NCBI RefSeq assembly: GCF_046105845.1 | Contig: NZ_CP151004.1 | Source: Escherichia coli | Lineage (GTDB): Bacteria > Pseudomonadota > Gammaproteobacteria > Enterobacterales > Enterobacteriaceae | Length of the DNA stretch: 64,000 nt | Reading direction: 5' to 3' (one strand) | Shown here: positions 15,861-37,666 of the stretch, one piece after another | Position numbering within the stretch: position 1 is the first letter of the stretch | How the letters are laid out: the number at the start of each line of letters is the position of its first letter | Made by a program: the position numbers and the translations under genes | The notes under the pieces: model-generated | Told to the model about the DNA's origin: nothing | What the model saw: the letters and a program-made list of their open reading frames with translations, nothing else | Database searches by the model: none

Positions 15861-15862
15861 TG

Positions 15863-18534: not shown

Positions 18535-18544
18535 AAAAGTCACC

Positions 18545-18733: not shown

Positions 18734-18764
18734 CTTTCCTCCTATAACACCAAAACAATACTGT

Positions 18765-18780
18765 ACACATAACCACTGTT
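18765..18780. promoter_or_regulatory. LexA (SOS) box
   Basis: CTGTTTATATTTACAG, a perfect CTGT-N8-ACAG box about 30 bp upstream of the 18733 start. Confidence 0.6.
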
Positions 18781-18885
18781 TATATTTACAGTATATAATA
18801 ATCTTACTGATGTAAAACGTTTTTTTACGTTCATCGGCCTGATATGCCTGGTATTATTAAGAGCACGAATTGTTAACCCGCGTAA

Positions 18886-21300
18886 TTAATATAGGTTCCG
18901 CCACTTATCATCTTCCTTCAGACGCTGGTTCCGATAGAAGATACGCAGGCCTGCTCCTGACGGAATACTGCCGCCGCGAAGGAGCAAATCGACTTCTTTC
19001 TCGCTGCCATCAAATCCCCTGGACTTCAGTTCATAGACGAGCTGCTGTCGCTGATGGTCTGTAATTCGCTGTTTGTAGTCTTTACGCCGTTTCGGTTTCA
19101 CCTGGCGTAACCTTGCAGCCAGTTCCCGGCGCTCTTTTTTGCTCATACTGTGCAGGTAATCGTGCAACTCCTTGTCATTCATACGGGTAATATCCGTTCT
19201 GGAGTCCGCATCAGCTGATTTGTCTTTCCCTTGTTGGTTCAAATTTTCAGCAAGGGGACAGTTATTGCCACGAGTCCAAGGGGCGCAAGCGCCCTGGTCG
19301 GCTGCCGCCTCCTGAACGTCAACGACCTTACGAACCATTTTCCATTTCATTGCATGAGTGCAGATCTTGCCCTGTACAATGGGTGACCAGATGCCATAAA
19401 TACGAATACCGTGATCGCCATAAGCGGTCGGCTCTTCGTTAATTTCATAAGCTGTTCTGATAAGGTGATATTTGCGGGGAACCAGTACGCCGCCCTGCTT
19501 CATGATGTAGGTGGCAAAACAGCCAGCATCAGCGGCAGCCAGGATGGCATCAAGGCGCGGGTCATCCAGTACCGGCGCACCTGCTTTTTTGTCACCCTGT
19601 TGCCTTGCCGCCTGACCAGCCAGCAAGCGAAGTTCACGGTACGCCTGACGCCCCGGAATACCAAAGAAGCGGAACTGCTGAACACGATGCAGAGACGCCC
19701 AGGCATTAACGTATTCGGCGTTATCACGCAGGGATTTACCCGTTTCCTTGCTGATCTCGCCAGCCAGACCACGTCCGTCAATGTTCTTACTGATGTATTT
19801 CGCGATGTAGCTTGTCGGCGTTCCTTTGCGCGGGTTTATCAGCTCAGACTTAAAGCGTGGACCCGTGTTATTGCCCAGTTCCTCGCGGTCTTCACGGATG
19901 GCAAACTTACGCAACAATGCAGTAATGGCGCGGCGGTCTTTTTTGCGCATGAAACACATGAGATGCCAGTGCACAGTACCGTCATGGTGCGGCTCAGCCA
20001 CCCGCACGCCATACCAGCGCAACCCGGCTTTGTGCATAGCCTTACGAAATGCAGCAAACATGCCGACCAGATAATCGCTGCTTTGTCTTACCGTCGCATT
20101 TGTCCAGGTTGGGTTTGGTCTGCCGTTATTGAGCGTAGAATGGAAACGTGACGGACAGGTAATGGTGTAGAAAACGGCGCAGTCACCACGCATTTCCGCG
20201 ATAAGCTCCAGACCTTTAACACAGGCCATCATCTCATTGCGGCGGTGCGCCGGGTTGCTGCTGCTGGCGTTTACCACGTCTTCCATATCCAGCGTGTCGC
20301 CGTCTTCGTTCACCAGTTCATGAGAACGGAAAAACTCCAGCGACTTGCGGCGCTGCTCACGTTTATGCGTCACTGCTTCATAGCTGACATAGGGAGATGC
20401 TTTTTTGCTGACCAGGCAGACAGCACGCAACTGCTCTTCCCGCCATTCGCAACGTATCTTCCACAATTTTCGATACCACCAGTCGGCGCAAAGCATACGT
20501 GCCAGCGAACCCGGTATGAGTTCATAGGGCACGGGTTTGCGGCGGTTTCTTTTCCGACGGAGTTTCTCAAACGCAGGCGGGATAACATCCAGACGCAGGG
20601 TTTCCGCTGCCACCTTTTCCCATGTCTTGCGGATTTCTTCTGGCTTAACGTCATCGGTGGCATACAAATCACCACAAGCGGCCTCAAGACACATGCTCAT
20701 ATGCGCTGCTACCAAGGTGGACAGGCGTTTTACCTGATCCTGACTCATTTCAGGCAGGATCAGCAGGCCCTCAAGCCCTTGATGGCTTGCCATAAAACGG
20801 AAAGAAGCGGATAGCTGACTGTCGCGTACATACTCCAGTCGCTCCAGACATGACTTAATCGTCTCACGCAAATAGCGGGAATAAGCCTTTGGCCTGCCCA
20901 GGCTGCTGAAGTATTCGATACGTTGCATCAGCGGCTTGCTGATGTGGGTGGGCTGGGCGCTGACGTCCGCCAGAATGACCATGTCCGGGTTAAAACGCTG
21001 CTGCTCATGCGCCAGCTTTGCCCGACTAATGAGATTATCCTGCTCCATTTCGCGCTGGACAGGATCACGGGATTCATTAAAGAAATAACGCTCCCAGACC
21101 TGCTCACTCAGTGCATCGCGGCGCAGCTGTTCCTGCTCGTTATCGGCAGCGTACAGAGTGATCATGTTTGAAAGTGCAGACTCCGGCGCAACTTCCGCCG
21201 GGTCCAGATAAGGGTTAATGGCCTTTTTCGGGCCGTTCCATGAAAATGCTGCAGCGGCCTCGTTAAAGCCGCTAGAGTTGCTCATATCATCATGACTCAT
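18886..21300 (-). CDS. A: Replication initiation endonuclease (P2 gpA-like, rolling circle)
   Basis: 804-aa ORF, characteristic size and position. Confidence 0.85.
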
Positions 21301-22154
21301 ACACGCACCTCGTACACAGCAGAACTATCCACGCCACGCGAAGGATCAAATCCCACCCAGCAGCGCGCCCCGGAAACAGCAATGATTTCTGTTGCAGATT
21401 TACTCTCGCCAGCCGACACGCCGATGCTGCGTTTTGCCTTGATGTAGTGGTGAGTGAAATTGCGATACAGCGAACGAATCAGGGATGTGTCACTGTTAGA
21501 AACAATGACCGGATGACCTTCAGATGATCGATGTTCAAGAACGGATGCCAGGTGATACTGGTCATCCTCAGTGAAGCCATCAGTGTGATAGCCGGAAAAC
21601 GTACCGTCATAAGGCGGATCGCAATACACCACATCCCCCGCCTTCAACATCGCCAGCGTTTCATCAAAGCTGGCGCAGATAAACGTTGCTCGCTGGGCTT
21701 TTTCTGCAAATTTGCGAATTTCTTTTTCAGGGAAATACGGATTTTTATAATTCCCGTAGGGAATGTTGAAATGCCCGCTCTTGTTATAGCGACATAACCC
21801 ACGGTAACCATGACGATTGAGATACAGGAAATATACCGCTTTCATGAAATCAGTAATTTCAGTGGAGTAATTAAACTCCTGCCTTATGTTGTAATAAGCC
21901 ACCTCCCTGTTTGCTTCCTCAAATAAAGCTCTGGCACGAGATATAAACGCCTCGCAATCAGCAGCAACCTTTTTATAGAGGTTGATTAAATCAGGATTAA
22001 TATCCGCAACAAGATAGCTGGGGTAATCCGTCTCTATCATCACAGCACAAGAACCCGCGAAAGGTTCAACCAGTCGCGGGCCAGCAGGAAGGTATTTTTT
22101 CAGTTCTGGCATAATGGCGGTTTTATTACCCGCCCATTTCAGGATGGTGCTCAT
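21297..22154 (-). CDS. DNA adenine methyltransferase (Dam family)
   Basis: From internal start [11 protein letters not shown]...; motifs LVEPFAGS and DPPY; stop overlaps the A start. Confidence 0.85.
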
Positions 22155-22378
22155 ACAGCACCTCCGTTGTAATGTTTGCCTTTCAGCTCTGCGATTTCCT
22201 GACAGGTAATGCAAAGCTGCACACCCGGAATGGCGCGACGTCGTGCTGGCGGAATTGGTGCTTCACACTCAATGCAAAGCACGCGGGATACGCCCGGCGT
22301 TTTGGCGCGGGCAGCACGGATATGACGCTGGCGTTCTTCTTCAACGCGCTGCTGTACGAGATCCATTGCATCAGCCAT
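22151..22378 (-). CDS. DksA/TraR-type C4 zinc-finger protein
   Basis: 75 aa, CIECEAPIPPARRRAIPGVQLCITCQ. Confidence 0.7.
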   Translation of the reverse strand: MADAMDLVQQRVEEERQRHIRAARAKTPGVSRVLCIECEAPIPPARRRAIPGVQLCITCQEIAELKGKHYNGGAV

Positions 22379-22617
22379 CAGTGGATCTCCTGCGCTTCGT
22401 TCTGGATTGCTTCAGCAGTCACACGCAGCAGTTCTGCCGCTTCGACGTGGTTTAGCTGGCGGGATGTGATATGAGACGCCAGGCTATCAAGGCGAGCTGC
22501 CATTGCTTCAGCCCTTGCCCGGCGTTCTTCCAGACGAGCCTCTGTCAGTAAAATATTAAGCCCTGCATCATCCGGTCCGGTTTTAGTCATGAGGGTTTCA
22601 ATATTACGCATAATCAA
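22378..22617 (-). CDS. Hypothetical phage protein
   Basis: 79-aa ORF in the early operon, tightly packed with neighbours. Confidence 0.5.
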   Translation of the reverse strand: MIMRNIETLMTKTGPDDAGLNILLTEARLEERRARAEAMAARLDSLASHITSRQLNHVEAAELLRVTAEAIQNEAQEIH

Positions 22618-22678
22618 TTCTCCTGAATTTAGATAAAGGGATGCCTGGCGGGTTTACGCCATGAATTTCATTAGTTGG

Positions 22679-23020
22679 TTAATTCGGCATGGTTAGCCGT
22701 CTGGGAAATAAGCTCACCACTGCACGAAAATGATTCATTGCTTTAATCAGCTCCCGCTTTTCGTCAGTGGTCAGCTCATTAATGCTGATGCTATGACGTT
22801 CAGCTGGAATTTTTGCCATAAAGAATATGGCAGCCAGTGCCCGTTTATTTTGTTCATTATTGATATCCCGTGGATCACGCATATCTTTAATAAACCGCTC
22901 AAGCTCTGACTCAATATTCAGGCCAAAAACTTTCGCTCTTAATTCCGCAATATGATTAAGTCCATTCAGGCGTTCACCGGGGCTTAATGGAACAGTCGCC
23001 GCAGCGCCTTCAATAGCCAT
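22679..23020 (-). CDS. Hypothetical phage protein
   Basis: 113-aa ORF in the early operon. Confidence 0.5.
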   Translation of the reverse strand: MAIEGAAATVPLSPGERLNGLNHIAELRAKVFGLNIESELERFIKDMRDPRDINNEQNKRALAAIFFMAKIPAERHSISINELTTDEKRELIKAMNHFRAVVSLFPRRLTMPN

Positions 23021-23214
23021 TGGTTCCCCCGTTTTTTCGTTGATAGTTCTGCCAGCAATTCATCTTGTGAACGGCACGGATGCCAGCGTTTACCATCCTC
23101 ACCCATGATCCAGCCGTGACCGTAGTGCATTGCCGGACTTTGTTTTACCAGCAGCGATGCAAATGATGGTTCTTTCGTCAGCATAAGCACCTCACAGCAA
23201 ACCGAATGAAGCAC
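22984..23214 (-). CDS. Hypothetical phage protein
   Basis: 76-aa ORF overlapping neighbours by a few codons; start uncertain. Confidence 0.4.
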   Translation of the reverse strand: MLHSVCCEVLMLTKEPSFASLLVKQSPAMHYGHGWIMGEDGKRWHPCRSQDELLAELSTKKRGNQWLLKALRRLFH

Positions 23215-23701
23215 CGAGGCCAGTCACGGTATCAACTGCACTCGCCATCGCAGGATTAGCCTGTAAACGGGCCTGCAATGAAACAGCAGCCAGCGCCATC
23301 AGTCGTGTAACAGAGTTAATGCTGCTGATCGCATCACGACGGCCTGCACTGGTTTTTACATCGCCAGAAACCGCACCTGCCGCGACACGCCCTATCTCTG
23401 CAGTTGCACTCATGACGTAATGCGGCAGTTTCTCTTTTGCCACCTCATTAATCGGTACACATGGCAGGCAGTGAATCTGTGCCAGAAAGCCATCTACCAG
23501 CGTTGAATCTTCAGTCAGATCGGTAAGCAGCCAGATTTCTGGCGCATTGAGCTGATGCGGTTGATCTGGGTTGAGTTTGTTTCGCAGAGTCTGGACATTC
23601 ATTCCTGCACGTTCTGCCAGCTTCGCCATATTGTGACGAAGTGCAAAAGCTCTACAGGCTTCATCAAAATGCGGGTGTTTGGAAACTTGGTAATCAAACA
23701 T
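23192..23701 (-). CDS. cII: Lysogeny establishment regulator CII (186 type)
   Basis: [50 protein letters not shown]... resembles 186 CII. Confidence 0.85.
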
Positions 23702-23733
23702 GGTCAATGCCTCTGATGTATTTCAGAATCGAA

Positions 23734-23955
23734 CTAATTAAGGTTTAGATTGCATTCTGAAAGCGCATCAACGGTCATGGCTGCTATGTTGATCATCACT
23801 TTTTCGCGTTTTTTATCTTTCCGCAGACGGTGACGGATAAGACGTCCATCAGCCAACATGTCATTGATAGTATCGATGGATAGCCCTGTCAGCTCGCTAT
23901 AACGTTCAATAGTCACATGAGGCGTGGTAAGAGTGATTGAAATGTTAGGTTTCAT
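23734..23955 (-). CDS. apl: Apl/Cox-like excisionase-repressor
   Basis: 73-aa HTH protein, first gene of the lytic operon, divergent from cI. Confidence 0.65.
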
Positions 23956-24080
23956 GATGCAACATTCCTCGTTTAATGTTGATTAATCAGGACGAATACG
24001 GATCGTTTGTATTTTGTGAACATCATAAACATACGATCGCATAATGAAATCGTCAAGACAAAAGTTCACTTGGAGTGACC
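23956..24080. promoter_or_regulatory. Lysis-lysogeny switch region (face-to-face pR/pL type, inferred)
   Basis: ~120-bp AT-rich interval between divergent apl and cI with short repeats (ATACGGATCG / ATACGATCGC). Confidence 0.45.
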
Positions 24081-24650
24081 ATGAATTTGGAGAAAGGCGG
24101 ACGAGGCGCTATAGAGCGCATGGTAGAAGCATATGGCTTCAAGACTCGACAGGCGTTGTGCGATCACTTAGGAATCTCTAAAAGTACTCTCGCCACACGC
24201 TATATGCGTGACTCATTCCCTGCTGAATGGGTAATCCAGTGCGCACTTGAAACGGGCGCCTCGCTTAACTGGCTCACGACCGGACATGGTTCAAAGCAAA
24301 CTTCAGGTAATACAAATACTATGGAAGTCGTTAAATATGTATTATCTGATGGAACCTTGCAGGAAGATGGTTTTTATATTTTCGATAAAGAATTTCTACC
24401 ATCTACGCTCAAAAATCCGTTTGTAATCACCGATAACAATTCCGTTTTTATTTGCGATAAAGAGTTTAACGATATTCGTGACGGCAAATGGGTAATAAGT
24501 ATTGATGCCGAAGTAACAATCCGCGATATCACTCGTTTACCTGGTGGAAGAATCTTAGTTGAAGGTGGAAATAGGGCTTTCGAATGTAAAAAAGAAGAAA
24601 TCGAAATTATTGGAAAAATTATAAGCATAACAGTTAAGTACTTTGAGTAA
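24081..24650 (+). CDS. cI: Immunity repressor CI (186 type)
   Basis: ATG at 24081 after a GGAG RBS; ...IERMVEAYGFKTRQALCDHLGISKSTLATRYMRD..CALETGASLNWLTTG...ITRLPGG...FECK... Confidence 0.85.
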   Translation: MNLEKGGRGAIERMVEAYGFKTRQALCDHLGISKSTLATRYMRDSFPAEWVIQCALETGASLNWLTTGHGSKQTSGNTNTMEVVKYVLSDGTLQEDGFYIFDKEFLPSTLKNPFVITDNNSVFICDKEFNDIRDGKWVISIDAEVTIRDITRLPGGRILVEGGNRAFECKKEEIEIIGKIISITVKYFE

Positions 24651-24700
24651 TATAGGAATGTTTTTATGCTTGGTAAAGCATTTGTTGTGGTGTAAAAAAT

Positions 24701-25624
24701 ATGTCAACTCAAAAATTAAAATTTAGCCATATCAAAAACGATCTGAAAGCAATAGTTATGCAGAATCGTGGAGGGCAAAAAGTTATTGAGCGTATACTCC
24801 TAGCCTATGGCTTCAAGTCACGACAGGCATTATGTAATCATCTAGGTATTTCCCAAAGTACTATGGCCAACAGATATGCACGTAATACCTTTCCTGCAGA
24901 TTGGGTTGTTATATGTTCCATAGAAACAGGAGCATCAATTGAATGGTTAGTTCTTGGTTCAGATACTGCTCCTTCATCAGAGCAATATTCTGAAAAACAT
25001 GCCGTTAATGGCCTTTGCAATGAAGTATACATTCCCACTATAAAGTTCGATAATGAAAAACTCATGAATTTTAACCGAGGGGGTAAGGCAACAATAGAAC
25101 GAATTGTCGAGGCTTACGGTTACAAAACGCGCCAAGCATTAGCTGATCACCTAGGTATTTCAAAAAGCACATTAGCCACACGATACATGCGTGACATTTT
25201 TCCTGCAGACTGGGTTTTGCAGTGTGCAATAGAAACGGGCCATTCTATTGAATGGATTTCATTTGGTACAGGAGAAATGAAAAACACAAAAAATAAAGAT
25301 ACTTTAACATTAGTGAAAAAAGTATTAATCAATGGCAAGTTAATAAATGATGGCTCATATTTATTTGACCCATGCTTTCTACCTTCCAATTTAAAAAATG
25401 CATTCGTAGTATCTACCGAAGACTCTGAATTAATATGTGAAATGGGTTTTAAAGATGTACATGATGGTAAGTGGCTAGTAAATATTGATGGAGAGAATTC
25501 ATTTAGAATGATAACTCGACTACCTAAAGGACGAGTTTATATTTCATCCCAAAATCACTCTTTTGAATGTTCGCTTACAGACATTGAGTTTATTGCAAAA
25601 GTTATTATAAGTTGTTTACATTAA
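24701..25624 (+). CDS. CI paralogue with tandem duplicated N-terminal HTH domains plus a CI-like C-terminal domain
   Basis: 307 aa; residues ~22-90 and ~125-190 each resemble the CI N-domain (the second carries ISKSTLATRYMRD, identical to CI); C-terminal FECSLTDIEF region parallels the CI C-domain. Confidence 0.8.
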   Translation: MSTQKLKFSHIKNDLKAIVMQNRGGQKVIERILLAYGFKSRQALCNHLGISQSTMANRYARNTFPADWVVICSIETGASIEWLVLGSDTAPSSEQYSEKHAVNGLCNEVYIPTIKFDNEKLMNFNRGGKATIERIVEAYGYKTRQALADHLGISKSTLATRYMRDIFPADWVLQCAIETGHSIEWISFGTGEMKNTKNKDTLTLVKKVLINGKLINDGSYLFDPCFLPSNLKNAFVVSTEDSELICEMGFKDVHDGKWLVNIDGENSFRMITRLPKGRVYISSQNHSFECSLTDIEFIAKVIISCLH

Positions 25625-25649
25625 GTAAATTTTTCATGGAGACTTCATA

Positions 25650-27167
25650 GTGAAATGTGGTGATTGTAATTGGAACTGGGATGAAGAAACTACCTTTATA
25701 TTAGACGACGAAGAGGAAATTCTTTCCAAAGACAAACTTAATCGGAGACACTATGCAGAATATCTATATTTTTATCTTAAGGAAAAGGGGCAAAAGAACA
25801 ACACGGTAATCAACCTTAATGCAGAATGGGGAGCTGGTAAAAGTTTTTTCATAAAGAGATTTTATAACTCAATAAAAGATGCACACCCATGCGTTTACAT
25901 TGATGCCTGGAAGCAAGACTTTTCTGATGATGCATTTTTAACCCTTTTTTCTTCTTTGTCACAACAATTGCAAACATATGCAGGAAAACTTGATGCTCGA
26001 TTGATACAAAGCGGCCATGCTATCGGACGCTTTACAAAAGGTGTTCTACCTGAAATCATATCTGGCCTAATCAAGACTTATGCAGGAGTAGATAACGTAG
26101 GTGATATAGCCAAAGAAGCCTCATTAATAATGCTGAAGGAACACCAGGAAAAACTGAAGAGCATTAAGGTATTAAAAAAAGAACTAACGTTATGGTCTAG
26201 GTTGGCATATGAAAATAGTTTTTCATGTCCTATATTTATCTTTATAGATGAATTAGACAGATGCAGGCCAGATTATGCAATTTCTCTTTTAGAGATTGTT
26301 AAACATATATTCGATATTAAAAATTTTGTCTTTATTATTGCTACTGACACAGATCAATTACAACATTCAATCAAGAATGTTTACGGTAATGATTTTTCCG
26401 CAAATGACTATTTAGGCCGTTTTTTTCATAGAAGATTTACTTTAAAACAACCTGAACTTAAAGATTTAATTAATGGTGTTATTGGTGATTATATTGGTAC
26501 CGATTTTGAAAATATCACATCAAAAACATACCCACTAACAGCAACATTAGAAGACTTTTCAATAAATATTTCCAACGTATTTGAAGCATTTGGGTTAAAT
26601 CTAAGAGACTCAATCCGAAATACTGAAAGGTTAATAGACATTCTTAAATCTGATTTAGTCAAAAAGAAAGTAGATTATATTTTTATAATTTCGCTAATGA
26701 TTATATATGATAAGGATCGTCAAATTATAGATGGACTAATTGGTCGAAGAAATGCAGCACAACGTTTCACTGATTCGATAAAGCAAAGCTCCAATTTAAA
26801 AGGTGTTTCTCAAGCCATCCTTGAATTAAATCTTGATACAAATCAGCAAAGAATAGGTGTCAATTATATCTATAGAACGGCGAGCAGTAGATTATTCATC
26901 TCACAGATCGAGCCCAAAATAAATTTAACATTAATAAATTACTTAGATGTTGCATTGTATTTTATTAATAATATAAACATGCTTAAATCAAGTATAAAAA
27001 ACAATGGGCAAAATTCACTAATGATTATATCTCAACAAGGCCCTATTGATGGTGATACAGCTATAAAGTATTTGCAAGGAGCCCTTATAGAGAATGGTCT
27101 GAATACATCTTTTTATGCCTTACATAATTACATTGAATTAATTGAACTGGCCACATCATTTGATTAA
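25650..27167 (+). CDS. KAP-family P-loop NTPase
   Basis: 505 aa, GTG start with GGAGA RBS; NLNAEWGAGKSFF (Walker A), IDAWKQDFSDDAFLTLF, IFIFIDELDRCRPDYAISLLEIVKHIF (Walker B), all hallmark KAP motifs; AT-rich. Confidence 0.85.
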   Translation: MKCGDCNWNWDEETTFILDDEEEILSKDKLNRRHYAEYLYFYLKEKGQKNNTVINLNAEWGAGKSFFIKRFYNSIKDAHPCVYIDAWKQDFSDDAFLTLFSSLSQQLQTYAGKLDARLIQSGHAIGRFTKGVLPEIISGLIKTYAGVDNVGDIAKEASLIMLKEHQEKLKSIKVLKKELTLWSRLAYENSFSCPIFIFIDELDRCRPDYAISLLEIVKHIFDIKNFVFIIATDTDQLQHSIKNVYGNDFSANDYLGRFFHRRFTLKQPELKDLINGVIGDYIGTDFENITSKTYPLTATLEDFSINISNVFEAFGLNLRDSIRNTERLIDILKSDLVKKKVDYIFIISLMIIYDKDRQIIDGLIGRRNAAQRFTDSIKQSSNLKGVSQAILELNLDTNQQRIGVNYIYRTASSRLFISQIEPKINLTLINYLDVALYFINNINMLKSSIKNNGQNSLMIISQQGPIDGDTAIKYLQGALIENGLNTSFYALHNYIELIELATSFD

Positions 27168-27229
27168 AAGCATTGTTTGAATAAACTAAACCATACATTG
27201 ACCACTGGTCAAACATACAGTTAAATTTA

Positions 27230-27253
27230 GCCCTCTGATATGAGGGCTTTATT
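27230..27253 (+). terminator. Weak hairpin upstream of int
   Basis: GCCCTC-tgatat-GAGGGC followed by TTTATT. Confidence 0.35.
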
Positions 27254-28306
27254 ATGGCAGTACGAAAACTCACCACAGGAAAATGGCTTTGCGAATGTTA
27301 CCCCGCCGGACGTAGTGGGCGTCGTGTGCGTAAACAATTCGCCACCAAAGGCGAAGCACTGGCTTTTGAGCGTCACACGATGGAAGAAACCGAAGCAAAG
27401 CCCTGGCTGGGTGAATCAGTGGATCGTCGAACACTGAAAGACGTGGTTGAGCTATGGTTCAAACTACATGGTAAATCTCTGACTGCTGGGCAGCATGTCT
27501 ATGACAAATTGCTGCTGATGGTTGACGCTCTGGGCAATCCCCTTGCAACTGATCTAACCTCTAAAATGTTTGCCCACTATCGAGATAAACGCCTGACAGG
27601 TGAGATCTACTTCAGTGAGAAATGGAAGAAAGGAGCAAGCCCGGTCACCATTAACCTGGAGCAAAGCTATCTAAGTAGTGTTTTTAGCGAACTATCCCGC
27701 CTGGGCGAATGGTCGTATCCGAACCCACTGGAGAACATGCGAAAATTCACCATCGCAGAAAAAGAGATGGCATGGCTTACCCATGAGCAGATTGTTGAAT
27801 TACTAGCTGATTGCAAACGTCAGGACCCAATTCTGGCACTGGTAGTTAAGATATGCTTAAGCACAGGCGCACGCTGGCGAGAAGCCGTAAATCTTACCCG
27901 CTCACAGGTGACCAAATACCGAATTACCTTTGTAAGAACGAAGGGGAAGAAAAACAGAAGCATCCCTATCAGTAAAGAGCTTTACGAAGAGATCATGGCG
28001 CTTGATGGGTTCAATTTCTTCACAGACTGCTATTTTCAATTTTTATCCGTGATGGAAAAAACGTCTATCGTGCTCCCTCGCGGTCAACTCACACACGTTC
28101 TGCGCCATACGTTTGCGGCGCACTTCATGATGTCGGGTGGAAACATTCTGGCTTTACAAAAAATTCTCGGACACCACGATATAAAAATGACTATGCGTTA
28201 CGCACATCTGGCACCGGATCATCTGGAAACGGCGCTCCGTTTCAATCCTCTGGCAACGCTGCCAAGTGGCGACAAAGTGGCGGCAGCGGTTGGCATTACC
28301 CCGTAA
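27254..28306 (+). CDS. int: Tyrosine integrase (P2/186 Int family)
   Basis: 350 aa; C-terminal catalytic region ...HVLRHTFAAHFMMSGGNILALQKILGHHDIKMTMRYAHL. Confidence 0.9.
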   Translation: MAVRKLTTGKWLCECYPAGRSGRRVRKQFATKGEALAFERHTMEETEAKPWLGESVDRRTLKDVVELWFKLHGKSLTAGQHVYDKLLLMVDALGNPLATDLTSKMFAHYRDKRLTGEIYFSEKWKKGASPVTINLEQSYLSSVFSELSRLGEWSYPNPLENMRKFTIAEKEMAWLTHEQIVELLADCKRQDPILALVVKICLSTGARWREAVNLTRSQVTKYRITFVRTKGKKNRSIPISKELYEEIMALDGFNFFTDCYFQFLSVMEKTSIVLPRGQLTHVLRHTFAAHFMMSGGNILALQKILGHHDIKMTMRYAHLAPDHLETALRFNPLATLPSGDKVAAAVGITP

Positions 28307-28442
28307 TAACCACCACTGACCACCAACCCAACTTATTGTTTTTACTCTAAGTTATTGTTTTCATTAACCCGTTTACATAAATGGGTAATTTGTATTGTTG
28401 AATAGCATCTGATGAGAAATTGATGCTAATATTATAAACATA
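28307..28442. other. Junction between the P2/186-like prophage (int side) and the lambdoid element; expected position of the P2-type att core
   Basis: AT-rich 136-bp interval between the int stop and the first lambdoid gene. Confidence 0.4.
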
Positions 28443-28616
28443 CTAGATTAAATCAATCTTGATATCATAGCTTTCAAGACCAGTCATTTTTTCCCGTGCA
28501 GTAAACTGGATACTGGTAACTTCTTTCCCGGTCTTTTTCTTAAGCTCAATGATTTTTTTTGTTATATATTCAGAAATATCTGCTTCTGTTTTTGTTTTTA
28601 ACTCTTCAATGTTCAT
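28443..28616 (-). CDS. GnsA/GnsB-family protein
   Basis: MNIEELKTKTEADISEYITKKIIELKKKTGKEVTSIQFTAREKMTGLESYDIKIDLI resembles E. coli GnsB. Confidence 0.7.
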   Translation of the reverse strand: MNIEELKTKTEADISEYITKKIIELKKKTGKEVTSIQFTAREKMTGLESYDIKIDLI

Positions 28617-28788
28617 CATTTCCTCTTTTAGTCTGTTATGACTTTCCTGGTACACAGTAGTGTCAATTATATGGAGCAAACGTATAAAAGATAAGATGAA
28701 ACATCGCAATAATCAACATACGACGGTCTAAATTTCACACAAACAGATAAAGATGATTATCATTTATTATCAATGCATTAGAATCAAA

Positions 28789-29019
28789 TCAATTCAAGAG
28801 TCTCATTGCTGCTTCCAGAATTTCTTCTGAAGTTACATGTCGATCCGCTGCTACATAAATGACTTTATGATCTCCGGTCAGAGATGGAAACCCTGCAGCC
28901 ATTACAGTGAGGTGTGTTGTTTCGCCATTTGGATATTCACGCATGATGGTGTTAACTCCGGTCATCACTGGCACTACCATTGCTGGTTCAGAGTTAAAAA
29001 AAACTATTATTTTTTTCAT
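28789..29019 (-). CDS. Hypothetical small protein
   Basis: ORF MKKIIVFFNSEPAMVVPVMTGVNT...; start uncertain. Confidence 0.4.
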   Translation of the reverse strand: MKKIIVFFNSEPAMVVPVMTGVNTIMREYPNGETTHLTVMAAGFPSLTGDHKVIYVAADRHVTSEEILEAAMRLLN

Positions 29020-29290
29020 AATGTTACCGTAATATGTGAGTATCCATCGACTAGACACTAAGCAAAAAAGCTCCCGAAGGAGCCTTCATTTTCACTTTCT
29101 TAAATCTAACGACAGACGGCTAACATTTAAGTATTGTGAAATATTATCAAATGTAATCATCATTGATTTACAAAAGATACATTTTGCCCCGAAAGGATTC
29201 CTGTCAGAAACATCAAAAGATGATGTTCTATACTGAGAACCATGGCAACACGGGCATCTAAAGTGAATATGGTTTGTAATATTTTCTACC

Positions 29291-29506
29291 TCAAAGTGCC
29301 ACTACATGAACAGCCGCGGGGCCTTTAGGTCCGTTCTCAATACCAAATTCGACTTCCTGATTCTCAGTTAACGTTTTGAAATCGTTGCTCTGAATAACTG
29401 AGAAATGGACAAACACATCTTTGCTACCATCTTTCGGCGTGATGAAACCAAAACCTTTTTCAGGGTTAAACCATTTCACTAAACCAGTCATTTTGTTAGA
29501 CATCAT
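29291..29506 (-). CDS. Cold-shock protein (CspA family)
   Basis: [23 protein letters not shown]...VFVHFS, RNP motifs. Confidence 0.85.
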
Positions 29507-29866
29507 TATTACCTTTTGAAGAAGTTAGCCCTTGGGCAGAATGGTCCGAAAAAAAATATCAGAGAGAAAAACCAACAAGGAGATCTCAAGAGGTACAAAT
29601 AATAAAATTATAACAATGACTGCTTCAGATAATTTTGTAACAAACCAGAACACCATTAACGCATGATTAACCAACCATAGCAAGGATTACTTTTGTAAAG
29701 AAAAACACACGAATGAAACAATAGCTTTATTTATTAATAAAACGTGTCATTCTGTCTAATGACCTTTTATCTTACCCTTAAGATTTCAAGGATTTTGACT
29801 CATGGAAGAGTCCTTTTTATTTAAATTTCACATTCAGCGCTAAAAATAATCCGATTTAATATTAAT

Positions 29867-30894
<1,028 letters not shown>

Positions 30895-31215
30895 GGATAT
30901 TTATCAGGATTTATCGGCTTCAAATCCCCGGATATGTTAAATCTTACCTCACCAGTGATGGGCACTGGCGGGAGGAGGATGTCAATCTGATAAACACAGA
31001 GGTGACTATGGATTACACAAATCTACCAAAACAAACTTTTGCTGATTTAATCGCACTCAGGCAAGCAGTCGTAGCTCTAATCAACTTGTTGCCGGAGAAG
31101 GAAAAGGAATTAGTTAAAGCGCTTCTTAACAGAACTGCCGCCGATTTTTCATCATATCCACTGACAGATGACCTTGCGGACCTTCCTGAATTAATTGCAG
31201 CGTCCGCCATTAAGC

Positions 31216-31767
31216 TTACTGAAGAGATTTACCCTCCTCAAAAATCTTCACAAAATTCCTGCGAGTAACTTCAATGCAATAATCGTAAAACGCCGCAAAC
31301 TGCTCATCGCGGCGTTTTTTTTCATCTTCAGAAGGGATCAGCACCGACAATTTTTTATTCAGATCAGCGACGCTGCCCTCCAGTTTTTCAATGGGCGATT
31401 CAATATCATCTTTTTCTGACCGCAATGCCGTCGGTGGCGTCTTCAGAGAACCAGTAATTCTTCCCGGTAGCTTTCCTTTGTAGGTTATCCACACATTCTG
31501 CGCCTCTAAAATTATGGGGCGCTTTTCCGGCGACTGCTCATCCCCTACACATAACCCGGCAGCAACATCCAGGAATACCTGTCTGATTCTCATTCTGGCT
31601 GCTGCCTCATAAAACTCCAGCGCGGCACCTTCAACACGGTCCAGCGAGATGTCCAGGTCAAAAATTTCACCGTCAAAGCGTTTTTTGTCCCGTAAGGCTA
31701 CAGTTACCGCCACTTTATTCTCAAAATTGCGGACTCCTTTCACAACCAGTTCATAGTCTTGTGTCAT
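31216..31767 (-). CDS. YdfR-like protein (DUF1327-type), between holin and lysozyme
   Basis: Position matches Qin essQ-ydfR-rrrQ; family assignment from memory only. Confidence 0.5.
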   Translation of the reverse strand: MTQDYELVVKGVRNFENKVAVTVALRDKKRFDGEIFDLDISLDRVEGAALEFYEAAARMRIRQVFLDVAAGLCVGDEQSPEKRPIILEAQNVWITYKGKLPGRITGSLKTPPTALRSEKDDIESPIEKLEGSVADLNKKLSVLIPSEDEKKRRDEQFAAFYDYCIEVTRRNFVKIFEEGKSLQ

Positions 31768-31771
31768 TGGA

Positions 31772-31987
31772 TTACTCTCTTCTCGCAACCTTACGCCTGT
31801 CTTCTTTAATCTTGAAATAAAGGTTTGTCAGATACGTCAGCAGGCCAAAAACCAGACTACCCAGCACACCGATTGCAGCCCACTGTGACGGAGTTACTTT
31901 ATCGAGTAACTGCAATGCCCAGAAACCAGCATTACCAGCCGATGTGCCATAGGCGATACCTGTTGTTAACTTATCCATTGATTTCAT
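31772..31987 (-). CDS. Holin (EssD/EssQ-like)
   Basis: [66 protein letters not shown]. Confidence 0.85.
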
Positions 31988-32205
31988 ATCCTCACCCCGA
32001 TGTACACAGATGGTGCAATATGTTTGAAAAGATCGGAGTCTATGGGTTAGTTTTTATAGCAAACGTTGTTCTCAACGGCGCTAAAAAACAGACACATTAA
32101 AAATGTGGGTAATTATTTTAAAAGAAAATCATATATTAAATAATAATACGAGATATGTTTTCATATTTAGTGTACTGTATACGGCCATTTATACAGGAAA
32201 AGCCT

Positions 32206-32376
32206 ATGTCAGAACGTAAAGACTCAAAATCACGCCGTAATTATCTCGTTAAATGTTCCTGCCCAAACTGCACCCAAGAGTCAGAACACAGTTTTTCAAG
32301 AGTACAAAAAGGTGCCCTTTTGATCTGCCCTCATTGCAACAAAGTATTCCAGACAAATCTTAAAGCTGTAGCTTGA
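32206..32376 (+). CDS. Small zinc-ribbon protein (hypothetical)
   Basis: ATG at 32206 after an AGGAAAAG RBS; CSCPNCTQ...CPHCNK, two CxxC pairs. Confidence 0.5.
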   Translation: MSERKDSKSRRNYLVKCSCPNCTQESEHSFSRVQKGALLICPHCNKVFQTNLKAVA

Positions 32377-32739
32377 TTGATTTTATTCGTAACAAGTATT
32401 TTTTATATTTTAATAACATATTTAAAGCAGATAATAAAAAACCCGCCTGAGCGGGTTTAATATTGTGGTACTTTTTGTGGGAGTCATCCACTTACGCACT
32501 TTGTTTTGCTATGCCAGCAGTTAGCTTCTGCTGTAAAACTATTCATGCAGCAAACCTGCACTTCACCACAATGGTTAGCATACTTTTCCTGATTAAGTTA
32601 TTGCCAAATATGCTGGCCATTGTTTCATGTATTGGACCTCCTTACTATTTATTAAAGAGATCCAATATTCACCACTCTGTCTGTATCTCCACTCAGGCAT
32701 CAGCCTTCTTCGTTATCGTATACAGACAAACTATGAATT

Positions 32740-32955
32740 TTAATCAGTAATTATGACATTTGCTGCTGCAGGACCTTTAGCACCACTCTCTACAGAGAAG
32801 GTAACCTTTTGACCTTCAAATAAGGTTCGAAAATTATCATTCTGAATCGCAGAAAAATGCACAAACACATCTTTACTACCATCAACAGGAGAAATAAAGC
32901 CAAAACCTTTATCAGCGTTAAACCATTTTACTAAACCAGTCATTTTATTTGACAT
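32740..32955 (-). CDS. Cold-shock protein (CspA/B/G family)
   Basis: [23 protein letters not shown]...VFVHFSAI. Confidence 0.85.
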
Positions 32956-33255
32956 TCTACATTCCTTAACTTGAGCCTTTCGGCATAAATGGCTTGTATA
33001 ACAGAAACGACTTCGTACTTAATTGGAGAGACTCAAAGAAGGAATAAGTGAATAACACCTGAAATGAGAACTGCTTTAGTAAACTACTTCGTATATCGTC
33101 TGTTCTTCAAACCGACGCAATCATTAACGCATAGTTGAACATATGAAGCAATGTTTATTTTAGACATCCAGCCATCTTCAACCCCATCAAAAAACTATAG
33201 CTTTCTTCAGGAACGTGTGTATAGTGCGCCCAGTTATCAGTATTAAGGAATTTTT

Positions 33256-33468
33256 TTGTCCCGTAAAATGACAGGAATTGTCAAAACCTTTGACGGCAAA
33301 AGCGGCAAGGGTCTTATCACCCCATCCGATGGTCGTATCGATGTCCAGCTTCATGTTTCAGCGCTCAATCTCCGCGATGCAGAAGAAATTACCACCGGAT
33401 TACGCGTGGAATTTTGCCGGATAAATGGTCTGCGTGGCCCTTCAGCTGCCAATGTTTACCTTTCATGA
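33256..33468 (+). CDS. Cold-shock-like protein (CspF/CspH type)
   Basis: [37 protein letters not shown]...[16 protein letters not shown]. Confidence 0.8.
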
Positions 33469-33883
33469 GCTATATTAAAGCTTTAATTTCAGGCCCCATC
33501 GAATCAAACATGGAGAGTTTTCATGAATAACCCCGTCTGTCTTGATGACTGGTTGATTGGCTTTAAAAGCTTATGCTGTACTTTGACCGTAATAGCTCTG
33601 CTAATAATGTAATATGCAGACTCATTGTATCTAGGGACATAGTACTGGAAGAAAACATTTTAAACATCAGGCAAAGTCACCCGATAAATAATAAGTAAAC
33701 AAACATGAATCCCGGAATGAGATTCAACATCTCTATTACCCTATTTAAAGCACAAAAACCCGCTCATCAGCGGGTTTTCTACTTTTTCTTAACGTCGGGT
33801 ATATAAAGCCCATCGTTGAAAAAATTTTATCCATATTTTTTGAAAAATGCAAGCATTACGTCGCCATCTTCGGCGAAAATCAT

Positions 33884-34636
33884 TTATCTCGTCACTTTTC
33901 TTAATTGCACCTCAGCATATGCTTCTTCCTGCCAGCACTTTGTAACCAGTTTATCAATGACATCTGCATATCCTTTGTACCACTGATAATCAGTCAGGTC
34001 TGGTACCAGCTTCTGGACATGACACCGCGCCAGTGTCGTTGGTAAACGACTAAACCGGTTTCCATTGCAACGCCCACAAATCTTATAAACAGGCGCGCCA
34101 TGAAGCCGGGTCCTTTTTTCATCCAGGACAATACCTTTACCCTTACACCCTCTGCACGCTGTGCTGACTTCTCCCTTACCATGACAATGCTGACATAGTT
34201 CCTTCACCCACTCTTCCTTGATAACAGACTCCCCGCTTCTGGAGTATTTCACCACTTCGCGCAATACATTATGAAATCCAGTACCAGCACAAGGCTCACA
34301 GCGAGCCTTACTTGCCGCAGACCTGGAATAATCAGCAAAGGCAAAACTCACAAGGTAAGGGATGATCTGTAACCGGATTTCTTCACTCAATTTGTTCAAT
34401 GTCGGGTTATCCAGTGCCATCGCGTAATTGAGCAGACCTTCAATCGCAAACTGAGGATCCTGAACGCCAGCTTTTGCCAGGAATAAGGCAAACCCAAGCG
34501 GTGCTTTCGACTGCACCATCCCCTGCGCAGCCATCACATCCGTAATCGTTAAACCACCTGAGCCTGTCGCCGGTGCGGCATCACTCAATTTTGGAGATTT
34601 TGGGGAGTAATATTTTGGTAAGGCTTCAAGGTTCAT
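33884..34636 (-). CDS. Late-gene antiterminator Q (QuuD/QuuQ type)
   Basis: From MNLEALPKYY...; Cys-rich zinc-binding region CEPCAGTGF...CQHCHGKGE...CRGCKGKG...CGRCNGN. Confidence 0.8.
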   Translation of the reverse strand: MNLEALPKYYSPKSPKLSDAAPATGSGGLTITDVMAAQGMVQSKAPLGFALFLAKAGVQDPQFAIEGLLNYAMALDNPTLNKLSEEIRLQIIPYLVSFAFADYSRSAASKARCEPCAGTGFHNVLREVVKYSRSGESVIKEEWVKELCQHCHGKGEVSTACRGCKGKGIVLDEKRTRLHGAPVYKICGRCNGNRFSRLPTTLARCHVQKLVPDLTDYQWYKGYADVIDKLVTKCWQEEAYAEVQLRKVTR

Positions 34637-34649
34637 GCTCGTTCTCCAC

Positions 34650-35645
34650 TTACGCCAGTACGCCAATTGCCAGCGCACGATCGATAAAACGAAATATCAG
34701 CTCCAGTTGGGAGCCATACTTCTCTTCAAATGTCACGGTATCCGCATGCAGCTCGTCGTGATGCTTTCTGCACAAAGGCAACACAAAGAGATCATGCGCT
34801 TTTGTACCCATTCCACCCTGACCGTGGCCTATCAGGTGGTGGGGATCATCAGCTGGCTTTCCACAACATGCGCACGGCTGCGTCTTAACCCAGCGCGTGT
34901 ACTTTTCATTAACCCAGCGGCGACGTTTGGGGCGTAACATAAAAGACTCCGGCGACTCCGGATCCACTTTCAGCGCCAGCACCTTTTTCGCTTTATCCTG
35001 GATGATGCTGGTGGCAGGAACCGAAGGCACAAGGTCACTTTCCCGGGTGACAGATGGCACAACAGGCTTCGGTAATCTCAGTGCCTTACGGGCTGCACTT
35101 TCCGGTAAGGCATCCGCCAAATCATTACGAACCAGCCACCAGCACAGTTCCGGCATTGTCACAACGTGACTGTCATCAAAACCGAGATCCCGACGCACGA
35201 CAGACAACACCCAGCGGGCACAGTTATCCGTTGCCATTGATTCCAGCCGTTCCGTGAACTGGTCACGCAGCTGGTTATCGCAGTGCCAGCACAGACGAAT
35301 TGCTCCCGGAGCGTGCCGCATTGTGGTCATGTTCTCGCTGTGCCAGTCGGAATGAGGCCACTGACAGCCCTTTTCACGAAGTAACCAGCTTTCAAGACAT
35401 TCCACGCCACCAGCACGACGGATCACTGCCTCATTGCGGAACACGGCCCGAACGGCAGGATCATCCGCCAGCGGTTGTGATGCCGCCGGAACGGCACCAC
35501 TGGCGAAAGATGAATAACGTTCCGGCTCAGGCTCCAGCAGGACACGCCCCTGCATAAACAGGGGCATCAGCTCTGAACCTGGCCTGAACAATACAATCCC
35601 CATACGCGGGGCAATTTCAGGGGTCAGTAGTGCTCTCACGGTCAC
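34650..35645 (-). CDS. YdfU-like protein (DUF968)
   Basis: 331 aa; C-terminal ...CACCGKPADDPHHLIGHGQGGMGTKAHDLFVLPLCRKHHDELH; Qin-like position upstream of Q. Confidence 0.75.
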   Translation of the reverse strand: MTVRALLTPEIAPRMGIVLFRPGSELMPLFMQGRVLLEPEPERYSSFASGAVPAASQPLADDPAVRAVFRNEAVIRRAGGVECLESWLLREKGCQWPHSDWHSENMTTMRHAPGAIRLCWHCDNQLRDQFTERLESMATDNCARWVLSVVRRDLGFDDSHVVTMPELCWWLVRNDLADALPESAARKALRLPKPVVPSVTRESDLVPSVPATSIIQDKAKKVLALKVDPESPESFMLRPKRRRWVNEKYTRWVKTQPCACCGKPADDPHHLIGHGQGGMGTKAHDLFVLPLCRKHHDELHADTVTFEEKYGSQLELIFRFIDRALAIGVLA

Positions 35646-35646
35646 C

Positions 35647-36444
35647 TCAATGAACGGTATCGAGCAGCTTTAACAGCTCAGGGAATCGGGATTCGAAGAA
35701 ATGCGGCTGCGTCTCGCGCGGATTTGCAGGACTGGTGATGTTCTTGCCGAACATGCAGCCTTTCGCCGTCAGCGACCAGAATTTTTTGATGTTGTTAATC
35801 GCGGTACGGCTGTATCGTTCGCGTTGTTCAACGATCCCCAGCTTCACCATCTGGTGATATGCCTGATTAGCCGTCAGGCGGATACCATACTGCCTCAGCA
35901 GTGCACTCAGAGACAGCGTGGGGCGACTTGAGCCATCGTGTGCATCAGCAGGAGCATCAATGGCATAGCGCGGTGCCAGATTCGGTAAGCCAACAGCCTC
36001 CTGGAGTTTCTGGCAGGCACCAAGCACTGAAGAGTTAGACAGGTTTAATTCCCGGCGCATAAAGTCCAGCAGAATCACACCAGCCTGCATCTTGTCAGCA
36101 GCCTGTCCGGATAATTTTTCCGGTGCGCTGGTTACCATGTCGAAAGTACGGATCACCTTCAGATGGAATGACGGGCTGATCCACATTGCATAGGCATACA
36201 CCAGTTCTTTGCAGACATACGTCCCCTGGTTATTTCCGCCACGAATAACGTTAACTGGCTCTATATTGACCGAGTTGCAAATCTGCAACTCGCTTATTAA
36301 ACGCTCAGTTTGCTCATTGCGGAGCCAGAATGCGGGCTTATGCTTATCCAGAGAACCAGCAGCCCTGTGCAGATCGTTCAGGCTGTAACGCCCATAAGCA
36401 TCACGACGAACTTCAATACCATCAATAACCATCAGATTATTCAT
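35647..36444 (-). CDS. KilA-N domain protein (antirepressor-like)
   Basis: N-terminal VIDGIEVRRDAYGRYSLNDLHRAAG...KPAFWLRNEQTERLISEL. Confidence 0.75.
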   Translation of the reverse strand: MNNLMVIDGIEVRRDAYGRYSLNDLHRAAGSLDKHKPAFWLRNEQTERLISELQICNSVNIEPVNVIRGGNNQGTYVCKELVYAYAMWISPSFHLKVIRTFDMVTSAPEKLSGQAADKMQAGVILLDFMRRELNLSNSSVLGACQKLQEAVGLPNLAPRYAIDAPADAHDGSSRPTLSLSALLRQYGIRLTANQAYHQMVKLGIVEQRERYSRTAINNIKKFWSLTAKGCMFGKNITSPANPRETQPHFFESRFPELLKLLDTVH

Positions 36445-36463
36445 ACTTCGTTTCTCCTCTTAA

Positions 36464-36853
36464 TCAGGCGGCTGCACCCGCCGTTTTCTCGTACTTACTG
36501 ATAGTGATCTCGACCTTCCCTTCCGGGATAACCGGTCCCCACTCCACCAGCATTCTTTTCACCTGACTGTCGTCTTCCCACACACCCGCGTGGGTCAGGG
36601 CGTCAAACAGCGCCTTGTTATAGTTGTCCAGATCGCGGATCCGGTTATCCGGAGGAAACAACACGATCTCCACTGAAGCAGGTGCCGACGTTGGTTTTGG
36701 CAGACGACGTAACTGCTCAAATATTGCTGCACACGCCGCGCTCTGGAATTTGCGCCCCGCCGCGCTTATCAGGCTCTTACCAGCAAACGCCCCTTTGTTG
36801 GGGTGTCGCCAGTACGTGTTCACGCTGGGCGGGAAAGGCAGGATCAGCTTCAT
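36464..36853 (-). CDS. rusA: Holliday junction resolvase RusA
   Basis: MKLILPFPPSVNTYWRH...DLDNYNKALFDALTHAGVWEDDSQV. Confidence 0.85.
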   Translation of the reverse strand: MKLILPFPPSVNTYWRHPNKGAFAGKSLISAAGRKFQSAACAAIFEQLRRLPKPTSAPASVEIVLFPPDNRIRDLDNYNKALFDALTHAGVWEDDSQVKRMLVEWGPVIPEGKVEITISKYEKTAGAAA

Positions 36854-37176
36854 ACTTTCAGGCCCCTCTCATGTAACCAGTGGGCTGCACGCAGTCTGGC
36901 GTTTTCCTCACCGGCAAGCAGTGCGCGGATAATCCCGGCTGCCTCGCTGTCGTCGTCCTTCACTGTGGTATGAAGCGTGATACCCCGGGCCACGCCACGC
37001 TTTATCGTGATGACGCCTTTTTTCTCCAGTGCGCGAAGATGCTCCACCGCTGCATTCACCGAACGGTATCCCAGCATGGCTGCCACCTCCTGATTGGTTG
37101 GCGGGAAACCACGTTCTTTCTGATAAGAAATCAGCATATCCAGCACCTGCTGCTGGCATTGAGTTAACGTCGTCAT
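36850..37176 (-). CDS. LexA-N-terminal-like winged-helix DNA-binding protein
   Basis: LTQCQQQVLDMLISYQKERGFPPTNQEVAAMLGYRSVNAAVEHLRALEKKGVITI parallels the LexA DNA-binding domain; no S24 peptidase domain. Confidence 0.6.
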   Translation of the reverse strand: MTTLTQCQQQVLDMLISYQKERGFPPTNQEVAAMLGYRSVNAAVEHLRALEKKGVITIKRGVARGITLHTTVKDDDSEAAGIIRALLAGEENARLRAAHWLHERGLKV

Positions 37177-37664: not shown

Positions 37665-37666
37665 GA

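Follow-up and report, generated by a model that had tools for sequence, protein, structure and literature searches.

The stretch of DNA analysed here (the window) comprises 64,000 nucleotides of the Escherichia coli contig NZ_CP151004.1 and contains two prophages that meet in a short intergenic gap. Positions 1 to 28380 belong to a P2/186-like (Peduoviridae) prophage, 28.4 kb of which lie inside the window, as judged from near-identity to a prophage in GCA_048865225.1 and from the Pfam content. From the gap leftwards to base 1, all genes are of the P2/186 type. This part starts within the tail sheath gene and carries the tail fibre, baseplate, lysis, capsid, terminase and portal genes as well as replication gene A, followed by cII, apl, cI, cargo and finally int. 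The int gene (27254 to 28306, plus strand) encodes a 350-aa P2/186-type tyrosine integrase with the domains PF24624 (Int_N) and PF00589 (Phage_integrase) and reads towards the attachment site. Exact copies of this protein are widespread in E. coli, where they are named tyrosine-type recombinase/integrase, and in E2348/69 the gene is annotated as 'phage integrase'. About 6.3 kb of the P2-like prophage, comprising the rest of the sheath gene, the tube gene, E, T, U, D, ogr and the second att site, lie upstream of base 1.

To the right of the gap, the right half of a lambdoid prophage occupies positions 28381 to 47797 on the minus strand. The last gene of this half is gnsB (28443 to 28616, minus strand), which encodes a 57-aa protein of the GnsA/GnsB family (PF08178, GnsAB_toxin). 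Its position was also recovered in a contig of the Logan assembly of SRR28309099, where a 57-aa GnsAB toxin at 12794 to 12967 (L038) maps to 28443 to 28616, and gnsB is annotated in the same place in the genome Ec1119. Besides gnsB, the half contains ynfN, cspI, rzpQ, rrrQ, essQ, cspB, an antiterminator gene, RusA, and replication, immunity and int genes. An earlier note on this DNA had listed int, immunity, replication, antiterminator and lysis genes for the lambdoid element, and all of them are present within 28381 to 47797; it had also remarked on the absence of lambdoid terminase, head and tail genes, and indeed no lambdoid terminase, portal, capsid or tail gene was found within the 64 kb. 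The lambdoid late genes read leftwards, that is, towards the P2-like insert. At the other end, the lambdoid integrase gene (407 aa, 46144 to 47367, minus strand) adjoins yjjG (47753 to 48430, minus strand), the host gene nearest to the composite on its right. The host DNA to the right of the lambdoid int gene contains yjjG, rimI, holD, rsmC, leuQPV (three tRNA-Leu genes), fhuF, bglJ and yjjQ.

The gap and the attachment core

The P2/186-type int gene ends at 28306 and gnsB starts 137 bp further on (28443 minus 28306), just as the earlier note had given it, leaving a gap of 136 bp from 28307 to 28442. That this gap might be ordinary host sequence had been considered at that time. Three homology searches found no host DNA in it; the gap consists entirely of a phage attP arm, a crossover segment and lambdoid DNA. 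Homology to P2-like sequences extends from int through position 28393 and then stops, as seen with 1,117 E. coli genomes at a coverage of at least 80% and with Peduoviridae phage records. Lambdoid homology begins at 28381 and thus overlaps the P2-like homology by 13 bp. This overlap is the crossover segment ATGGGTAATTTGT (28381 to 28393, plus strand), with which the att core of this phage group begins. The earlier guess of an att core within 28307 to 28340 was therefore slightly off.

The int-side attP arm of the P2-like phage (28307 to 28380, plus strand) is kept in the KP12 and 4LV2017 phage records and in prophages at the normal site. Positions 28307 to 28386 are base-for-base equal to the attP of KP12 and to the arm beside the annotated attL of 4LV2017. 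The arm contains two direct repeats AA(C/G)TTATTGTTTT, at 28330 to 28342 and 28349 to 28361, which may be arm-binding sites of the integrase. It also brings the rising half of the hairpin of the int terminator (28367 to 28386). Beyond the crossover segment, positions 28394 to 28442 are lambdoid DNA reaching from the pseudo-attachment site (pseudo-site) to the stop codon of gnsB. They are in register with positions 9014 to 9062 of the Ec1119 prophage locus (L001), with one mismatch at 28432. No tRNA is located in the gap, and the sole Rfam matches between 26 and 34 kb are two cspA thermoregulators.

The normal core of the phage, which starts with ATGGGTTTTTTGT, was defined by alignment of attachment sequences. 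ATGGGTTTTTTGT is common to the KP12 attP, to the attL annotated in 4LV2017 and to both kinds of junction at the normal site, int-side and ogr-side. The attP in the KP12 record reads ...ACATAA-ATGGGTTTTTTGTTGTCTGAAATTTAT-GCCG..., int-side junctions at the normal site read ...ACATAA-ATGGGTTTTTTGTTGCCTGAAATTTAT-CTACTACCC towards rcdA, and ogr-side junctions read, coming from ybjL, ...CAAGGTTG-ATGGGTTTTTTGTTGTCT.... The first run of bases common to attP and every attB-derived junction is ATGGGT. Compared with this normal core, the crossover segment in the window matches at 11 of 13 bases. The differing bases, 28387 and 28388, are AA, as in the lambdoid sequence, and TT in the prophage at its normal site. 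With two mismatches in 13 bases the core match is imperfect, which speaks against a nested integration, and use of the site by the integrase is read from the sequence.

Undisturbed counterparts of the two prophages

The closest phage records to the P2-like part are Peduoviridae, and a nearly identical prophage is located at the normal rcdA/ybjL site in GCA_048865225.1. Window positions 1 to 12483 differ from it by one mismatch in 12,483 bp. Positions 15650 to 28393 show two mismatches in 12,744 bp, both of which are the core bases 28387 and 28388. The full prophage at the normal site in GCA_048865225.1 measures 34.7 kb, as calculated from the record coordinates and the sequence. The P2-like prophage appears to be complete, its portion in the window being nearly identical to this full-length one. 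Pfam annotation of loci that are 99.9-100% identical to the window gave a late gene order of the P2 type (Q P, O N M L X holin lysozyme R S V W J I H G, sheath, tube, E, T, U, D, ogr) and an early region of the 186 type (CI, Apl, CII, Fil, A), with int beside att.

The phage normally attaches in the terminator region that separates rcdA (ybjK) from ybjL. This site is also used in E2348/69, in Ec1117, which has the best int match, and in all other contexts shown that reach a prophage end. When empty, the normal attB reads CAAGGTTGATGGGTTTTTTGTTGCCTGAAATTTATCTAC, or the variant ...GTTATCTAAAACTTATCT, and the ybjL-side sequence beyond ogr is CAACCTTGAACCGAAATGG. Past its 14th base the attB varies between strains (...TTTGTTGCCTGAAATTTAT in E2348/69 versus ...TTTGTTATCTAAAACTTAT in GCA_048865225.1). 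Alignment of these variants suggests that only ATGGGTTTTTTGT(T) is kept in common, which would make a match at 11 of 13 bases a plausible substrate for the integrase. Two P2-like copies in CP019256.1 (L009 and L010) were considered as an example of a secondary site and rejected; both are flanked by ybjL and lie at the ends of the record, where an untrimmed overlap is suspected.

The lambdoid half also has an undisturbed counterpart. Ec1119 carries a complete prophage of ~45 kb between prfC and yjjG, in which the site is uninterrupted (...CGAGGTTT-ATGGGTAATTTGT-ATTGTTG...). A comparison with a strain carrying an empty site had been proposed in the earlier note, and Ec1119 provides it: beyond the uninterrupted site follow a 68-aa ORF, DUF1441, the large terminase, portal, capsid, tail and tail-fibre genes, and then prfC. 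The lambdoid element thus has its own attachment site between yjjG and prfC. A match of 19,320 bp in one piece, with three mismatches, links the visible lambdoid half to Ec1119, and divergence starts at 47798, inside yjjG. From position 9001 onward, the Ec1119 locus equals the window from 28381 onward with one mismatch in 11,120 bp, so that nothing is lost on the visible side. The mismatches at 40391 and 42683 alter no protein tested. No IS elements, frameshifts or deletions were found in the visible 19.3 kb. Judged by the near-identity of each to an undisturbed prophage elsewhere, both partners are recent and undecayed.

The pseudo-site, AGGTTTATGGGTAATTTGT, separates the lysis/csp/gns module from the terminase genes and is located downstream of gnsB, at a distance of 50 bp. 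It is also present in the free lambdoid phages 2H10, mEp460_ev081 and HannyBb, which identifies it as native lambdoid sequence; in the 2H10 genome record, ~340 bp remain between it and the right end. Compared with the normal attB AGGTTGATGGGTTTTTTGT, the pseudo-site matches at 16 of 19 positions, the AGGTT flank included (AGGTTgATGGGTttTTTGT against AGGTTtATGGGTaaTTTGT). The pattern ATGGGTNNTTTGT occurs once in the 64-kb window, where 0.08 occurrences are expected. Local alignment of the normal attB and the lambdoid site, with 330 bp around each, returned the 19-bp stretch as the sole match, with no further flank homology. With only 16 of 19 bases shared and no flanking homology, a captured host attB was rejected as the source of the pseudo-site, which is a look-alike and not a copy of the rcdA/ybjL region. 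In both the normal attB and the pseudo-site, a T-rich run comes after a hairpin, and a further hairpin is supplied with the phage arm. The minus strand of Ec1119 has a terminator-like hairpin directly beside the pseudo-core. As we read the reconstructed attB, a hairpin at the end of ybjL would contribute its falling arm and T-run as the normal core.

Origin of the composite

It is likely that the P2/186-like phage was integrated by its own integrase at the pseudo-site inside the lambdoid prophage, which was thereby split, giving a nested composite. According to this reading, a temperate phage of 34.7 kb with its own tyrosine integrase would have recombined its attP with the pseudo-attB in a resident lambdoid prophage, the phage circle being either incoming or re-integrating. 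Strand exchange would have occurred inside ATGGGT or directly behind it, at the left core end, because core positions 7 and 8 of the int-side junction have the lambdoid AA. The int-side product would then be the attP arm followed by ATGGGT and the lambdoid AA-TTTGT onward. The resulting composite would measure ~80 kb and run from yjjG through lambdoid int to gnsB, then P2-like int to ogr, then lambdoid terminase to tail, and end at prfC. For the reciprocal junction the pattern CGAGGTTT-ATGGGTWWTTTGT-TGYCTGAAATT is predicted; written out it should read ...AAAACGAGGTTT ATGGGT[TT or AA]TTTGTTGTCTGAAATTTATGCCGTTT..., the ogr-side phage arm on the reverse strand being GCCGTTTAAAATCATGA. No plausible ORF spans this predicted junction.

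That the P2-like phage split the lambdoid prophage had been one of the options in the earlier note. It fits every testable feature, while the split itself is deduced, the ogr side being located outside the window. The break lies exactly at the left edge of the P2-like att core, and the arm is the attP arm of free phages. On its int side the guest is flanked by lambdoid DNA that resumes in register with the uninterrupted site. From the anatomy of the junction and the geometry of the chromosome we infer that the reciprocal junction and the lambdoid left half lie upstream of the window. The tandem arrangement that the note had also offered is contradicted by the attachment sites: the lambdoid sites are at yjjG and prfC, the primary attB of the P2-like phage is at rcdA/ybjL, and the two elements meet inside the lambdoid map and not at its att end.

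The junction is absent from all 5,426 complete RefSeq E. coli genomes. A search with the exact KAP NTPase led to the Logan contig of SRR28309099, which is 100% identical to window positions 15650 to 32944 (17,295 bp), across the junction. Because this is a separate assembly with an identical junction, the latter is not a one-off assembly chimera. The Logan contig ends at window position 11690, inside the capsid gene, as might happen if the genome contained a second, related P2-like prophage. P2 classically goes to secondary sites when its primary site is taken. If the normal site were occupied, this would fit the use of a secondary site by classical P2 behaviour.

The predicted reciprocal junction had no match in the collections viral_contigs, genome_contigs and metagenome_contigs. 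In an exact scan, the int-side junction likewise had no match in viral_contigs and genome_contigs, so that the absence of the reciprocal junction from these two is uninformative. Contigs were also read by exact protein matches. For both variants of the tape-measure protein, every contig read (for the commoner variant, the longer contigs) showed the normal ogr-ybjL context. The exact tail fibre protein H was located on 17 contigs, and every context shown was again ogr-ybjL. The exact large terminase of Ec1119 was found on no contigs besides Ec1119. The lambdoid capsid fusion protein gave 335 blocks in the collection, of which the 23 with the longest contigs were read. D, U and ogr proteins are each on at least 1,000 contigs, and the tail-fibre assembly proteins were too common or too collapsed for upstream walking. 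The ogr-side contig of SRR28309099 was not among the exact-protein matches read (H, tape-measure, large terminase and, for the capsid fusion, the 23 of 335 blocks with the longest contigs).

Other origins of the arrangement were weighed against nested integration. The lambdoid element could be a right-half remnant, truncated before the P2-like phage integrated or deprived of its left half later, in which case the ogr side would be flanked by non-lambdoid DNA. The window does hold no lambdoid structural gene, the reciprocal junction was found in no scan, and cryptic lambdoid remnants with a csp/gns end, such as Qin of K-12, are common in E. coli. However, the visible 19.3 kb argue against a remnant: they differ at only three positions from a complete 45-kb prophage, which occupies the same prfC/yjjG site, and are free of IS elements, frameshifts and deletions. 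The break matches the att core to the base and is not a deletion end point. A remnant that ended exactly at the pseudo-site before the phage arrived would be a coincidence, and a later deletion bounded exactly by the other att is unlikely within so short a divergence time. We therefore regard a remnant as improbable. The same near-identity, together with the presence of the site in free lambdoid phages, argues against the degraded cryptic prophage with a captured secondary site that the earlier note had proposed. An assembly chimera that joins P2-like and lambdoid prophages from elsewhere in the genome would explain why the junction is missing from every complete RefSeq E. coli genome, but it is extremely unlikely: at the join, just 6 + 5 bases are common to both partners, which is far too few to mislead an assembler, the break is exactly at the edge of the att core, and the separate assembly of SRR28309099 has the identical junction over 17.3 kb.

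A secondary rearrangement would have to arise by integrase-mediated recombination between a normal-site int-side att and the pseudo-site, or by homologous recombination between two P2-like copies, and would leave a rearranged chromosome or a duplication. Two observations are compatible with it: ogr lies beside ybjL in all contigs read with the tape-measure protein, and the break of the Logan contig at 11690 would agree with a second P2-like copy. The gene orders suggest that the P2-like prophage has the same orientation on the K-12 map here as at the normal site. The two sites are thus in direct orientation, and a gnsB-int junction together with an ogr-ybjL junction would imply a deletion of ~0.92 Mb of essential chromosome; the interval between prfC and rcdA on the K-12 map holds many essential genes. 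A duplication would create a new junction between rcdA and the lambdoid terminase side and not between gnsB and int, and an inversion would join gnsB to rcdA and not to int. The Logan contig also passes the int-side junction unforked, which argues against identical copies with different int-side flanks. A rearrangement is thus very unlikely, even less probable than a remnant. As deletion, inversion and duplication all fail to give the arrangement seen, simple insertion at the pseudo-site is the only viable route in one step.

Consequences and comparison with known systems

The insert would separate the lambdoid lysis/gns module from cos and the terminase genes and thus split the late operon. 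With 34.7 kb added to the 45-kb lambdoid genome, the composite would be too long to package unless the insert leaves first; 34.7 plus 45 kb is far above the packaging capacity of a lambda-type head. The lambdoid prophage is probably disabled for as long as it carries the insert. Excision of the P2-like prophage should be possible, since the hybrid att sites differ from the normal ones at only two core positions. By gene orientation, the lambdoid late operon runs into the insert, antisense to the int-KAP-CI operon and then sense to the early lytic operon (apl, cII, A). Normally the pseudo-site is followed by a terminator-like hairpin, which here is displaced to the far side of the insert. It is conceivable, though doubtful, that the nesting couples the two phages: induction of the lambdoid prophage and antiterminated transcription might derepress and drive the P2-like phage, whose excision would restore a packageable 45-kb lambdoid genome, so that the guest would act as a reversible switch.

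The case would be a rare example of two known things, secondary-site integration and a prophage within a prophage, rather than an element of a new kind. Lambda and P2 are both classical examples of phages that integrate at secondary sites. For P2, Barreiro and Haggard-Ljungquist reportedly described secondary attachment sites in E. coli in 1992 (locII, locIII, locH and others). As in those systems, a tyrosine integrase would have joined attP to a partly core-matching sequence, with the phage arm up to the core and the target beyond it, and the event is rarer than use of the primary site. Unlike in those systems, the target is not host DNA but the inside of another, apparently functional prophage, and the phage, a 186-like relative, uses another primary site (rcdA/ybjL) than P2 itself. 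Off-site integration of lambda is treated in PMC5605937 and in Shimada et al. 1975, as cited in PMC6379469. P2-like phages were located at 13 loci in E. coli and Salmonella genomes, many poorly populated loci being read as secondary sites (PMC3603311).

For STEC and EPEC, a prophage integrated site-specifically into an att-like sequence inside another prophage, giving a nested cluster, has been reported by Nakamura et al. 2021 (PMC8112680). In that study, the attBs inside prophages measure 21, 96 and 121 bp, were copied from the host loci yecE, ykgJ/ecpE and ompW, with flanks that are 81-87% identical, and are found again in many strains; the guests as well as the hosts are lambdoid, and every host prophage was defective (PMC8112680). 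As in those clusters, the guest in the window would lie at an att-like site within a host prophage. However, the site here is a chance look-alike at 16 of 19 positions without flank homology, the guest is a P2/186-like myovirus of another phage family than its lambdoid host, and the visible half of the host prophage is undecayed, with three mismatches in 19.3 kb to a complete prophage. In contrast to the recurrence in many strains, the event in the window is absent from the 5,426 complete genomes. Nesting could thus occur without a captured host attB or a defective host prophage, and could cross phage families.

As an apparently clean and very recent natural integration at a pseudo-att site, the junction is of use for mapping the crossover. 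Both partners are nearly mutation-free, which places the crossover within a few bases, to the left of core positions 7 and 8. Taken together with the natural variation of attB, this would narrow the stretch kept by this integrase family to ~13-14 bp, ATGGGTTTTTTGT(T). A prophage-calling tool would list the region as an 80-kb composite or as a lambdoid element that is 'truncated', where the correct reading would be two phages, one nested in the other. Tandem prophages likewise lie side by side without a host gene between them, but they join att end to att end at one attB, whereas here an int-side att meets the middle of the lambdoid map. The lambdoid half also resembles Qin of K-12, with which it shares the gnsB, ynfN, cspI and rzpQ module in gene names and order as annotated in many E. 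coli genomes. Qin is a decayed remnant at ydfJ, whereas the element in the window lies at yjjG/prfC and has a nearly identical counterpart in a complete prophage of 45 kb.

Attachment sites of the two phages

At rcdA/ybjL, the normal attachment site of the P2-like phage, the host-derived part of the site was compared by alignment between strains. The strains differ past the 14th base, reading ...TTTGTTATCTAAAACTTATCT in one (L031, 12732-12770) and ...TTTGTTGCCTGAAATTTATCT in the other (L002, 5129-5160). This difference places the region of obligatory identity of the P2-like att in its first 13-14 bp, and the crossover by the P2-like integrase probably also falls within this stretch.

For the lambdoid prophage, the comparison was made with Ec1119, a strain that carries a complete, uninterrupted version of it at prfC/yjjG. 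Identity to the Ec1119 prophage does not stop at the lambdoid int but reaches into the 3′ end of yjjG (from 47753). It degrades only from 47798, beyond which host mismatches are dense. Because identity runs into yjjG up to this point, the att site of the lambdoid phage itself and the 3′ end of yjjG seem to overlap. On this comparison, the window strain and Ec1119 carry the same lambdoid phage while differing in host background. The Rfam cspA thermoregulator (RF01766) gave two full-length matches, at 29245-29650 (117 bits) and 32677-33116 (157 bits), both located upstream of the lambdoid csp genes.

Accessory genes of the P2-like prophage

The stretch 1065-3562 of the P2-like prophage contains an invertible tail-fibre segment and, next to it, the gene of a 188-aa Hin/Gin-type invertase, encoded on the minus strand from 1631. 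Imperfect inverted repeats of 27 nt are located at 1687-1713 and 3536-3562, and alternative fibre C-termini and assembly proteins lie inside the segment, at 1659-2060 and 2064-2483 on one strand and at 2455-3057 on the opposite strand. In other assemblies of the same P2-like phage (L040, L061), the segment was found in reverse orientation, giving a fibre of 469 aa and a chaperone of 139 aa, compared to 513 and 200 aa otherwise.

A cargo region (24701-27167) separates int from the 186-type CI repressor (24075-24650). It encodes a second CI-like protein, which is longer (307 aa), and a P-loop NTPase of the KAP family (505 aa). The NTPase matched the PADLOC candidate defence family PDC-S20 (E = 9e-78), with weaker matches to PifA and QatA. 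The prophage of E2348/69 also has this pair.

Within 15863-18108, a 474-aa protein without a Pfam match and a 111-aa DUF8087 protein are encoded, with the portal gene on one side and a DinI-like gene and replication gene A on the other. In P2, old/tin occupy this position. PADLOC gave no match for either protein.

Related P2-like prophages in other assemblies

In CP019256.1, a related P2-like prophage occurs twice, at opposite ends of the 'complete' record (L009, 5326-25928; L010, 4769456-4790058), and the ybjL flank is present at both copies. An untrimmed circular overlap seems to be the explanation, not a double lysogen. The sole other assembly found with the int-gnsB junction was contig 101 of Logan SRR28309099, which ends in the capsid gene, at the position corresponding to window 11690, and in the cspB region, at that of 32944. 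The break at 11690 may reflect a second P2-like prophage in the SRR28309099 genome with late genes in common.
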